Below are positions 38,892 through 40,632 of a stretch of DNA of 64,000 bases, piece by piece. The position numbers and the translations under genes were made by a program. The notes beneath the pieces are model-generated. The model saw only the letters and a program-made list of their open reading frames with translations. It was not told the DNA's origin and did no database searches. Source of the DNA: a virus. Lineage: Duplodnaviria > Heunggongvirae > Uroviricota > Caudoviricetes. The stretch lies in IMG/VR virus record IMGVR_UViG_3300029887_000004. The stretch is one strand, 5' to 3'. How positions within the stretch are numbered: the first letter of the stretch is position 1; every line of letters starts with the position of its first letter.

Positions 38892-40133
38892 TTAATTATT
38901 TTTTCTTTCATGTTCCATTCTCCAATCGATACATCTCTGCAGATAATCAACGTATTCTGGATTTTTACACATGCATTTACCCATATCATCACTGATCTTA
39001 GCTACATCCTGTCCATTTGCAACAGTTACTTTCATAACAATGTTAAGTGGTGATACTTCTGTATCATTGGATAAGTATGTTCCGATGCCAAATGCAACAT
39101 TTGTTCTTCCATTAAACACTCTAAAAATCTCATCGGCTTTTTCAAAATTTAAAGAATCAGAAAACAGCAGAGTTTTTGTTCTTGGATCAATACCAAGACT
39201 CTGATAATGATCAATCATCTTCTGCCCTCATTCAATCGGATCTCCAGAATCATGACGTACACCAGAAAATAATGTGGCGTATGTGAGCTGGAAATCTTTA
39301 AGAAAACAATCTGTTGTAATTGTATCAGTTAATGCGATGCCGTTAAGAACTCCATATTCTTTGATCCAGGCATTCAATGCATACCAATTTGAATATGCTG
39401 GATTATGTTTATGATTTCCCTGACCTACACACATAATCCATTCGTGTGCCATTGTTCCAACCGGTGTTACACCGTATTTTTTGGCCAGATACACATTGGA
39501 CGTTCCAATGAATTTTGAAGCAGAATGCATTGTATCATTTAGGTGAGAAAACTTTTCCACAACCATTTCCTGGGCTTCTGCAGATAATCTTCTACGAAGA
39601 CCAAACTCCGAAAATGTTCCTGCATACCAATTTCCATATTTCAGTTTGTTGAATTTCTCATCAAGACGTTTTTCAAAGCTTTCAAGAAGCTCGTCATAGT
39701 TGTACTTCATACGGAAATATACTTCATTTACAATTGCAAGAACAGGAATCTCATACATAGAAGTATTGAGCCATGTACCTGCTGTTTCAATACTAAGTCC
39801 GCATTCTGCATCATTTGAAATCGTAAAATCTTCAAAACGTGGCTGCCAAAGTCTTAAGAAGTCAACGTAGGAACCTTTGATCCATTTGATACTATTGAGA
39901 CAAATCAGCTCCTCTTCTGTAAACCGAAGATTGCAGTATGCTTTAACCTGTTCTGTAATTTCGTCTACCATATCTGTAGTAAAATATACATCTTTGTTTC
40001 GACATTTGAATGTCCAAGTCGTTTTATAATCCGAGAACTGATGATAAATTGCCTGACCCATACTGTACTTATATAAATCATTAGACAGTAGACTTGTAAT
40101 AATCTGATCTAATTTCATATCTCTATTCTCCAA
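38892..40133 (-). pseudogene. pncB: nicotinate phosphoribosyltransferase (PncB) interrupted by a single in-frame TGA at 39228-39230, at the conserved DPxEW position
   Basis: The two track ORFs (301 aa and 108 aa) are collinear and in the same frame: ...RHDSGDPIE-TGA-GQKMIDHYQSLGIDP...FGIGT. E. coli PncB has W at this point (DPVEWGEKAIAHY). Other tryptophans in the gene are TGG. Confidence 0.6.
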
Positions 40134-40632
40134 TCACATTAATCTGGCAACTTCTCATAACTTCGAGTGCTGCTTTATGTTTCTCAGGTGTCGATCCAGC
40201 ACAGCAGCTGGCATCTACTGTAATTTCTGTTTTTGGAAACACTGCTCTTAAAATCAATGCATTTGAAATCACACAGATATTCGTCGTTAAACCGACTAAC
40301 TCAATATCACCTCTAACCCATCCCAATGTAATCCATTGCAAAGTTCCAAAACAATCTTTATTTACATACATGCAGTTAGGAACTTCAAGTCCATCTACAA
40401 TCTTCCAGCCTTTTGAACCGTAAATACAATGTTTTACTGGAAGTTTTCTTCCTTCCTGAGTATTCAAATAATCGTCATAATGCGTATCTCTTGTAAAGAT
40501 AATTTGATCTCCACGATTGTAATACTCCTCAATTTTCTTTTTTACATTCGGAATGATCGCCTGTGCTTCTTCCGATCCAAGGCTCCCATTTACGAAATCA
40601 TTCTGCACATCTACTACAATTAAAGTTCTCAT
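40123..40632 (-). CDS. pncA: nicotinamidase / pyrazinamidase (isochorismatase family)
   Basis: LIVVDVQNDF together with the catalytic-Cys context TNICV. 169 aa. Confidence 0.7.
   Translation of the reverse strand: MRTLIVVDVQNDFVNGSLGSEEAQAIIPNVKKKIEEYYNRGDQIIFTRDTHYDDYLNTQEGRKLPVKHCIYGSKGWKIVDGLEVPNCMYVNKDCFGTLQWITLGWVRGDIELVGLTTNICVISNALILRAVFPKTEITVDASCCAGSTPEKHKAALEVMRSCQINVIGE

Follow-up and report, generated by a model that had tools for sequence, protein, structure and literature searches.

Does a large gut phage that carries genes for nicotinamide salvage hold a working route for rebuilding nicotinamide adenine dinucleotide (NAD), and does this route serve against host defences that deplete NAD? 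The question is raised by positions 38892–40632 of the IMG/VR virus record IMGVR_UViG_3300029887_000004, a 64,000-nucleotide stretch of a Caudoviricetes phage (hereafter the window), in which the original prediction had recognised pncA, encoding a nicotinamidase, and pncB, encoding a nicotinate phosphoribosyltransferase (NAPRTase), as a phage-borne pair that would act against NAD-depleting immunity. These coordinates were found to correspond exactly to pncA plus the two pieces of a pncB gene split by a stop codon. We consider it probable, though well short of certain, that a large gut phage here carries, among its string of accessory genes, a copy of a nicotinamide salvage module of host type that has been reduced and lately damaged.

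All genes at the locus lie on the minus strand. Intact pncA (40123–40632, 169 aa) is followed by the ATG of pncB at position 40118, 4 bases past the pncA stop, and a free-standing homing-endonuclease-like gene (HEG; 37399–38880, 493 aa) starts 12 bases past the stop of pncB. The pncB frame runs through 296 codons (N-terminal piece, 39231–40118), meets a TGA at 39228–39230 and, with no shift of frame, continues as far as the TAA at 38892–38894, the TGA being the sole internal stop in about 1.2 kb; the C-terminal piece (38892–39227) includes a 108-aa open reading frame (ORF) from an ATG at 39218 (Met301). Both the interruption of pncB and the adjoining homing endonuclease, as first described, are thereby borne out. 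The proposed check by hidden Markov models was run and supported both enzymes as real, with Pfam matches for the two of them and an NCBIfam equivalog match for pncB only, and the phage-borne nature of the pair agrees with its relatives, which are IMG/VR contigs of 100–200 kb, and with neighbour genes matching PHROGs. Searches for promoters and terminators around the locus did not rise above the level of chance, and no NAD-related riboswitch was found with Rfam.

With the TGA read as Trp, pncB encodes 408 aa and scores 407 bits against the NAPRTase equivalog model TIGR01514 (cut-off 269.55) and 479 bits against NF003704 (cut-off 379), next to Pfam matches to NAPRTase_N and NAPRTase; the equivalog cut-offs are passed only in this form. 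Compared with the solved PncB of P. aeruginosa (1YIR; 306 bits), the read-through protein places the TGA opposite a Trp. The N-terminal piece holds the N-domain, FGLRRR, GTSN, His225 (within TMAHEW) and RHDSGD at 288–293, and the C-terminal piece holds FSDSL at 319 and FGIGT at 343; His225 is presumably the phospho-histidine, and RHDSGD, SDS and GIGT are taken to bind the phosphoribosyl group, as in the family. An uninterrupted pncB frame covering both domains is missing from the window.

Among the relatives, the frame is open. Position 297 is Trp in 80 of 80 IMG/VR relatives (about 80% protein identity), and the codon is TGG in every locus from which it was extracted, 77 viral and 78 bacterial. 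An intact 408-aa allele, P0001, differs from the read-through protein of the window by the Trp at 297 and one Lys-to-Gln change; five contigs encode it, all with pncA, pncB and the HEG arranged as in the window, its pncB DNA differs from that of the window by 3 bases, and the strains are about 99% identical. The check for an intact pair in related phages thus had a positive outcome, and the alternative that pncB might be disrupted in all relatives fails, the frame being intact in 158 of them as well as in P0001. Nine independent contigs from ENA and Logan yielded the truncated product of 296 aa, and all TGA contigs retrieved for comparison match the window at 100% identity over pncA, pncB and the HEG. 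Because the relatives have TGG, P0001 is nearly identical and nine contigs share the TGA, these comparisons identify the stop as a real, derived and very recent nonsense allele, a single G-to-A change from TGG to TGA. The TGA allele identifies a single clone, in circulation across several samples.

A sequencing or assembly error might be suspected from the one-base difference from the intact allele. The same truncated product was obtained from different runs and with different assemblers, however, and since nine independent assemblies share an identical allele, such an error is highly improbable. To an equally small degree we would credit a reading of the TGA as Trp, by genetic code 4 or a suppressor tRNA, which would leave the gene intact: the TGA does occupy a Trp position, only part of the genome (64 kb) is seen, and gut phages are known to recode stop codons (PMC10607447). 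Yet 25 of the 92 long minus-strand ORFs terminate with TGA, and reading TGA as sense gave no specific gain in ORF length over other stop reassignments when ORF statistics were compared for four codes. TGA avoidance, multiple in-frame TGAs and a suppressor tRNA, the marks of code 4, were all lacking; the window has tRNAs for Met and Leu only, and no suppressor tRNA was detected in it or in 26 related loci. Recoding is also argued against because strains about 99% identical have TGG at codon 297. The sole remaining candidate for an in-frame TGA, near 29165, was considered on account of a CTP_transf_like gene in the relative L090 that hinted at an adenylyltransferase-like gene; it was dropped, since the window shares no homology with that region of L090 and this TGA lies between two small ORFs that are unrelated to each other.

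What the stop does to the enzyme can be judged from its place. The break lies inside the NAPRTase domain PF04095 (residues 169–395), and in an hhalign comparison SDS and GIGT of the C-terminal piece fell opposite GDS and GVGS, the motifs that contact ribose phosphate in Namat and NAMPT. Because SDS and GIGT sit in the C-terminal piece and the catalytic domain itself is broken, the N-terminal piece alone should be inactive, as far as knowledge of the family goes. With a nonsense codon in the middle of the catalytic domain, full-length PncB is to be expected in trace amounts at most. An AlphaFold2 model of the intact protein places residue 297 at the start of a helix following a strand; with a mean pLDDT of 51, a low confidence due to the shallow alignment, this is a hint only. 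We therefore infer that pncB of the window is a fresh pseudogene; the pncA/pncB pair of this strain is not intact.

It might be argued that the TGA allele still functions, either by read-through with Trp or by a restart at Met301 that yields two pieces (1–296 and 301–408) able to assemble, and that the stop might even throttle expression. We regard this as unlikely, though several observations have to be set against our own interpretation. The stop replaces precisely a Trp codon. TGA is the leakiest stop codon, and tRNA-Trp is near-cognate for UGA, so that misreading would restore the wild-type residue at a low level. An in-frame ATG lies 9 nt (three codons) past the stop, with GAGGG 6 nt ahead of it; pairing of this site with the 16S tail (−7.6 kcal/mol) is stronger than for 91% of random ATGs and for 43% of the real starts in the window, and the 108-aa ORF is predicted by gene callers. 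The allele is, moreover, present in nine independent samples, and a strain circulating so widely could mean that it is tolerated or still useful. An attempt at the ratio of nonsynonymous to synonymous substitutions after the mutation met identical TGA contigs and a pncB only those 3 bases away from the intact allele, so that selection since then is beyond measurement. On the other side, Met301 and the G-rich stretch are ancestral, Met being conserved in relatives and the TGG allele pairing even better (−10.9 kcal/mol), and hence were not shaped by the stop mutation. The break falls within the catalytic barrel domain, and none of the 158 relative loci examined displays a stop or a split at this point. 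As the compared TGA contigs are one clone, their persistence shows tolerance only, and the same clone has a second disrupted accessory gene, with a frameshift at about 49106. Two other odd copies of pncB came to light: the match in L141 (Roseburia hominis An869) has an in-frame stop over the matched coordinates, and in the 547-aa metagenome protein P0004, also a PncB, about 140 residues are duplicated internally; each may be an artefact or another damaged copy.

In comparison, pncA appears sound. Its product reveals an isochorismatase-fold domain (PF00857, E=2e-25, 90 bits against a cut-off of 27), and its closest solved relative is the nicotinamidase of P. horikoshii (1IM5/1ILW). Asp8, Asp49, His51, His68 and Cys120 align with the catalytic and zinc residues D10, D52, H54, H71 and C133 of that enzyme, and Lys92 was identified by the conserved K-x-x-F-G motif in which it stands, HMMER placing it six residues from K94 because loop lengths differ; an Asp-Lys-Cys catalytic triad and an Asp-His-His metal site are thus complete. 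The identical protein was found in at least 53 collection blocks. It speaks against this assignment that the equivalog model for bifunctional nicotinamidase/pyrazinamidase, NF008623, was reached with 25.9 bits only (cut-off 174); the model derives from the longer enterobacterial type. From the conserved residues, we infer nicotinamidase activity.

Taken together, PncA would deamidate nicotinamide to nicotinate; nicotinamide is the base that NAD cleavage sets free, as in the attack by defence enzymes of the TIR, SIR2 or DSR type. Intact PncB would then use phosphoribosyl pyrophosphate (PRPP) and ATP to form nicotinate mononucleotide (NaMN), which host NadD would adenylylate and host NadE would amidate in the last two steps. 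Strains with the intact allele would likely refill their NAD pool faster during infection, including after a depletion triggered by defence, and in the window strain the phage-borne pathway would in effect consist of PncA alone. The claim that the phage encodes the first two Preiss-Handler steps is accordingly right as far as the presence of both genes goes; these are two of the four steps from nicotinamide to NAD, and the second is broken. Homologues of NadD, NadE, NMNAT, Nudix and NAMPT were all absent from the 64-kb window, so that even with an intact pncB the phage would depend on NadD and NadE of the host. Against this stands that only 64 kb of a genome of at least 114 kb is seen, so that NadD or NadE could lie elsewhere. 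A candidate nadE remnant after pncB, a 15-aa tblastn match at 38894–38938, was dismissed, since it reads the conserved 3′ end of pncB in another frame.

The missing steps are normally present in this group of phages. Beside PncB, 80 phage relatives encode NadE in 78 cases, PncA in 65 and NadD in 62, usually in the order PncA-(radical SAM)-DUF5662-PncB-NadD-NadE, and a four-enzyme Preiss-Handler route is the norm among them; in smaller groups, another adenylyltransferase or genes for NrtR, Nudix or Macro proteins occur. Phage enzymes leading from NAD cleavage products to NAD are therefore encoded by most relatives, and not in the window. Deposited phages offer little for comparison: a megablast of the locus against GenBank phages returned no match, and a protein search recovered pncB from 14 of 50,697 records, with at most 43% identity over the full length. 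One phage contig of the PncB-NadE-Nudix-Macro type (L020) also displays a tmRNA gene (14275–14654) with the tag AEELRMVA.

The closest cellular counterparts point to the origin of the genes. Phage PncB is 75–83% identical to its chromosomal counterpart in isolates of Lachnospiraceae, namely NK4A144, KH1P17, Agathobacter, Eubacterium uniforme, Butyrivibrio and Roseburia, in which the native arrangement is NrtR-PncA-PncB(-NadE); pncA adjoins pncB in most of these loci. Such identity and the native operon order indicate capture of a host operon, and the host is probably a member of the Lachnospiraceae. The window shares with this operon the same two enzymes in the same order and differs from it in being phage-borne, in lacking NrtR and NadE, in its cut pncB and in the attached homing endonuclease.

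The last of these features appears to explain how pncB came to its present place. The HEG product combines a predicted nuclease with DNA-binding domains (NUMOD1, I-HmuI_NUMOD-like and DUF2726 in Pfam) and matches phrog_374 (1e-32) and phrog_9084 (9e-22), families that go by the names HNH endonuclease and homing endonuclease. In three sister loci (L081, L083 and L084), homology to the window ends at 40115 and picks up again at 37405, so that the interrupting cassette (37406–40114, minus strand) comprises exactly pncB and the HEG. Between strains, identity is 99.8% for pncB and 99.5% for the HEG, as against 86.8–98.2% for pncA and 87.8–100% for the remaining flanking genes. As judged from these alignments, this mosaic identity is that expected from lateral spread of pncB and the HEG among backbones that diverge by up to 13%, and the two genes constitute a mobile cassette, a newly recognised feature of the locus. 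Spread of an HEG together with flanking DNA is seen both in the identity of the cassette against its flanks and in its variable presence beside nadD or nadE, next to one of which the HEG homologues of relatives always stand, beside nadE in Namat-type modules. Accordingly, the place occupied by the NAD genes looks like a homing-endonuclease hotspot. Homologues within PncB- and Namat-type modules were seen in L003, L034, L037, L054, L234, L259, L260 and L286, and other endonuclease genes lie between pncA and pncB in some relatives, for example at 7270–8004 in L007 and 6117–6818 in L034. Free-standing HEGs of large phages, such as Seg and Mob of T4 or I-HmuI-like genes with NUMOD modules, are alike in their NUMOD modules and nuclease domain, in sitting between conserved genes, in travelling with a neighbour and in a cassette identity far above that of the flanks; the HEG of the window differs from them in that its nuclease region matches DUF2726 and HNH-named PHROGs and no characterised enzyme.

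What the cassette replaced can be read from the sister strains, whose PncA protein is identical to that of the window, whose pncA DNA is 99.4% identical and whose flanks are 93–99% identical. After pncA, in place of pncB and the HEG, they encode a PRPS-like protein (271 aa, Adps), a NAMPT-like protein (490 aa), a Macro protein and NadE; this module, PncA-Adps-Namat-like-(Macro)-NadE, occupies 10001–14079 in L081, occurs also in L181–L298 and is the counterpart of the cassette. In the lineage of the window, the cassette would have replaced this set after the same pncA. Solved structures place the NAMPT-like protein nearer to phage Namat (9W5X, E=7e-100) than to human NAMPT (1e-42); 9W5X is Namat of the NAD reconstitution pathway NARP1, for which the structures 9W5X and 9W5W are available (PMC12774641). 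The link of the locus to NAD reconstitution, postulated before, therefore gains support from an Adps/Namat set of NARP1 type in the same slot.

One residue sets the sister enzyme apart. In Namat of SPbetaL1, Asp215 hydrogen-bonds nicotinamide and D215A cuts the activity eight-fold; in human NAMPT, the equivalent Asp219 sets substrate specificity and D219S switches substrate affinity. The sister enzyme displays Ser at this position and keeps the remaining pocket residues. All 114 IMG/VR loci related to it (47–98% identity) have Ser or Ala here, and in 107 of these Adps is joined by PncA and NadE, in either of two gene orders. The 80 loci closest to the canonical enzyme of Bacillus phage Zainny have Asp or Glu at this residue, with Adps in 72 of them and PncA or NadE in none; phages of Bacillus, Staphylococcus and Mycobacterium in GenBank carry the plain two-gene form with Asp. 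The Ser/Ala modules lack PncB and NadD, the classical bridge between PncA, which makes nicotinate, and NadE, which consumes nicotinate adenine dinucleotide (NaAD). The simplest reading suggests that Adps and the Ser/Ala Namat make NaAD, a substrate preference deduced from a single residue. In such a pathway, termed here "deamido-NARP1", PncA would turn nicotinamide into nicotinate, Adps would turn ADP-ribose into ADP-ribose pyrophosphate (ADPR-PP), the Namat variant would join nicotinate and ADPR-PP to NaAD, and NadE would amidate NaAD to NAD, which would explain why these modules have PncA and NadE without PncB and NadD. It weighs against the proposal that the Ser/Ala set is one clade, so that its loci are not independent. 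No paper linking Namat with NadE or PncA was found in a literature search, and the sister slot suggests a new candidate, an undescribed NARP1 based on nicotinic acid, whose genes sit in the sister strains and outside the window itself. An hhalign comparison of PncB with Namat, concerning whether the Ser of the PncB motif GTSN lies against Asp215, aligned the C-terminal third only.

We tentatively propose, with somewhat less than even confidence, that pncA is the entry enzyme of a family of phage NAD-rebuilding pathways based on nicotinic acid, with exchangeable cassettes of which one is pncB (with or without the HEG) and another is deamido-NARP1. Consistent with this, pncA adjoins pncB in the 65 of 80 phage relatives named above and the Adps/Namat-like/NadE set in the 107 of 114 loci.

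NAD depletion is a major theme of bacterial antiviral immunity, and three phage answers, NARP1 to NARP3, have been characterised. NARP1 consists of Adps and Namat, and neither NARP1 nor NARP2 includes PncA or PncB (Osterman et al., 10.1101/2024.02.11.579819). The window shares with NARP1 a possible purpose, the rebuilding of NAD from cleavage products, and Adps/Namat-like genes in the equivalent slot of its sister strains. It differs in having neither Adps nor Namat, and a PncA/PncB route needs nicotinate and PRPP and four steps, without recycling ADP-ribose; the sister enzyme in turn departs from Namat of NARP1 by its Ser/Ala in place of Asp215 and by the company of PncA and NadE. NARP2 (NAMPT and NMNAT, as in NadV/NatV of vibriophage KVP40) and NARP3, a pair of PnuC and NadR (PMC13464706), are alike in being phage salvage from a pyridine precursor, but they proceed in the amidated form via nicotinamide mononucleotide and are complete on the phage, whereas the window would follow the deamidated route via nicotinate and NaMN and is incomplete. 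Closest in kind are gut jumbo phages with pncB-nadD-nadE clusters, for example Kuafu_71, and phage pncA, for which a counter-defence against NAD depletion was proposed as a suggestion without a test (PMC11662467). These "NAD-jumbo phages" have the same phage-encoded nicotinate route, and most relatives of the window carry the full PncA-PncB-NadD-NadE set; in contrast, the related contigs mostly measure 100–200 kb, below the 200-kb jumbo cut-off of that paper, and the window has the first two steps only, the second broken, with a constant pncA and exchangeable genes downstream. As phage Preiss-Handler clusters were already published in 2024 (PMC11662467), the PncA/PncB route is not the newly recognised variant that had been supposed, and the pair of the window belongs to a known kind, as a degraded copy.

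Whether the module serves in defence can be weighed from its neighbours. A counter-defence role is plausible by analogy with neighbouring and allelic genes. It has to be held against such a role that the host has its own pncA and pncB and that a general metabolic boost explains the genes equally well. Under the latter explanation, the locus is an ordinary auxiliary metabolic module that supplies NAD for replication and for NAD-using phage enzymes and has no specific link to immunity. We consider this possible, though less likely than not. The genes copy a host housekeeping operon, gut jumbo phages with complete NAD pathways have been called "independent synthesis and utilization systems" (PMC11662467), the phage encodes an NAD user, Tpt1, and the nonsense allele is tolerated in nature. 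However, the sister-strain slot holds a set of Adps/Namat type, whose characterised members are counter-defence systems (10.1101/2024.02.11.579819), Macro and Nudix genes for ADP-ribose handling accompany the modules in relatives, and the neighbourhood is rich in conflict genes, among them a DUF262/GmrSD-like gene, PemK toxins, methylases and an RNA-repair set. A metabolic and a defensive use do not exclude each other.

Tpt1/KptA, an RNA 2′-phosphotransferase, had been brought forward as an NAD consumer of the same phage. It is encoded in the window (53893–54426, minus strand; PF01885, 147 bits), outside the NAD locus and about 13 kb from the pair, and the support it lends is weak. It groups with an RNA-repair set, to which its function is more likely tied than to the genes of NAD salvage; this set, on the minus strand at 20004–24569, includes a P-loop kinase (20004–20900), an RNA ligase of T4 Rnl1 type (20897–22186) and an RlaP nucleotidyltransferase (23541–24569).

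For the biology of these phages, large gut phages of Lachnospiraceae type appear to keep a fast-changing "NAD slot", in which a constant nicotinamidase gene is followed by interchangeable sets, an HEG-linked cassette moves among strains, and single strains lose steps. The pair of the window is a two-step remnant with a broken second gene, and the chief value of the locus lies in the exchangeable slot and in the module of the sister strains; the large, conserved PncA-Adps-Namat(Ser/Ala)-Macro-NadE module, if the proposal is true, could restore NAD by way of nicotinic acid. In the gut, such nicotinamidase and nicotinate enzymes of phages further bear on the conversion between nicotinamide and nicotinate by the gut microbiota.

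Several other genes of the window deserve mention. The second disrupted gene of the clone, a DUF262/GmrSD_N-like gene on the minus strand (48633–50136), encodes 500 aa in sister strains and is split here into ORFs of 351 and 142 aa by a +1 frameshift at about 49106, in a homopolymer of A7 versus A6; the frameshift is reproduced, as the independent assembly L082 is 100% identical to the window there. PemK/MazF-family toxin genes occur in the window (52326–52697) and in the relatives L081, L083 and L091, one being paired with a MazE antitoxin in L091; they lie among small genes upstream of the NAD slot and adjoin a divergent helix-turn-helix gene on the plus strand (52877–53224). A "skipping-rope" RNA motif (RF02924) was detected with 71 bits, against an Rfam gathering threshold of 36.7, in an intergenic position on the minus strand (45315–45395) that adjoins an RRXRR/HNH gene. 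A C5 DNA methylase with an intein (Pfam Intein_splicing and DNA_methylase; 59895–61946, minus strand) is adjoined by a tyrosine recombinase/integrase gene at 62004–63044. Finally, the minus strand at 15864–19910 displays a P-type cation ATPase (875 aa) followed by vWA/TerF-like and TerD genes, a combination of transporter and stress proteins that is unusual for a phage.

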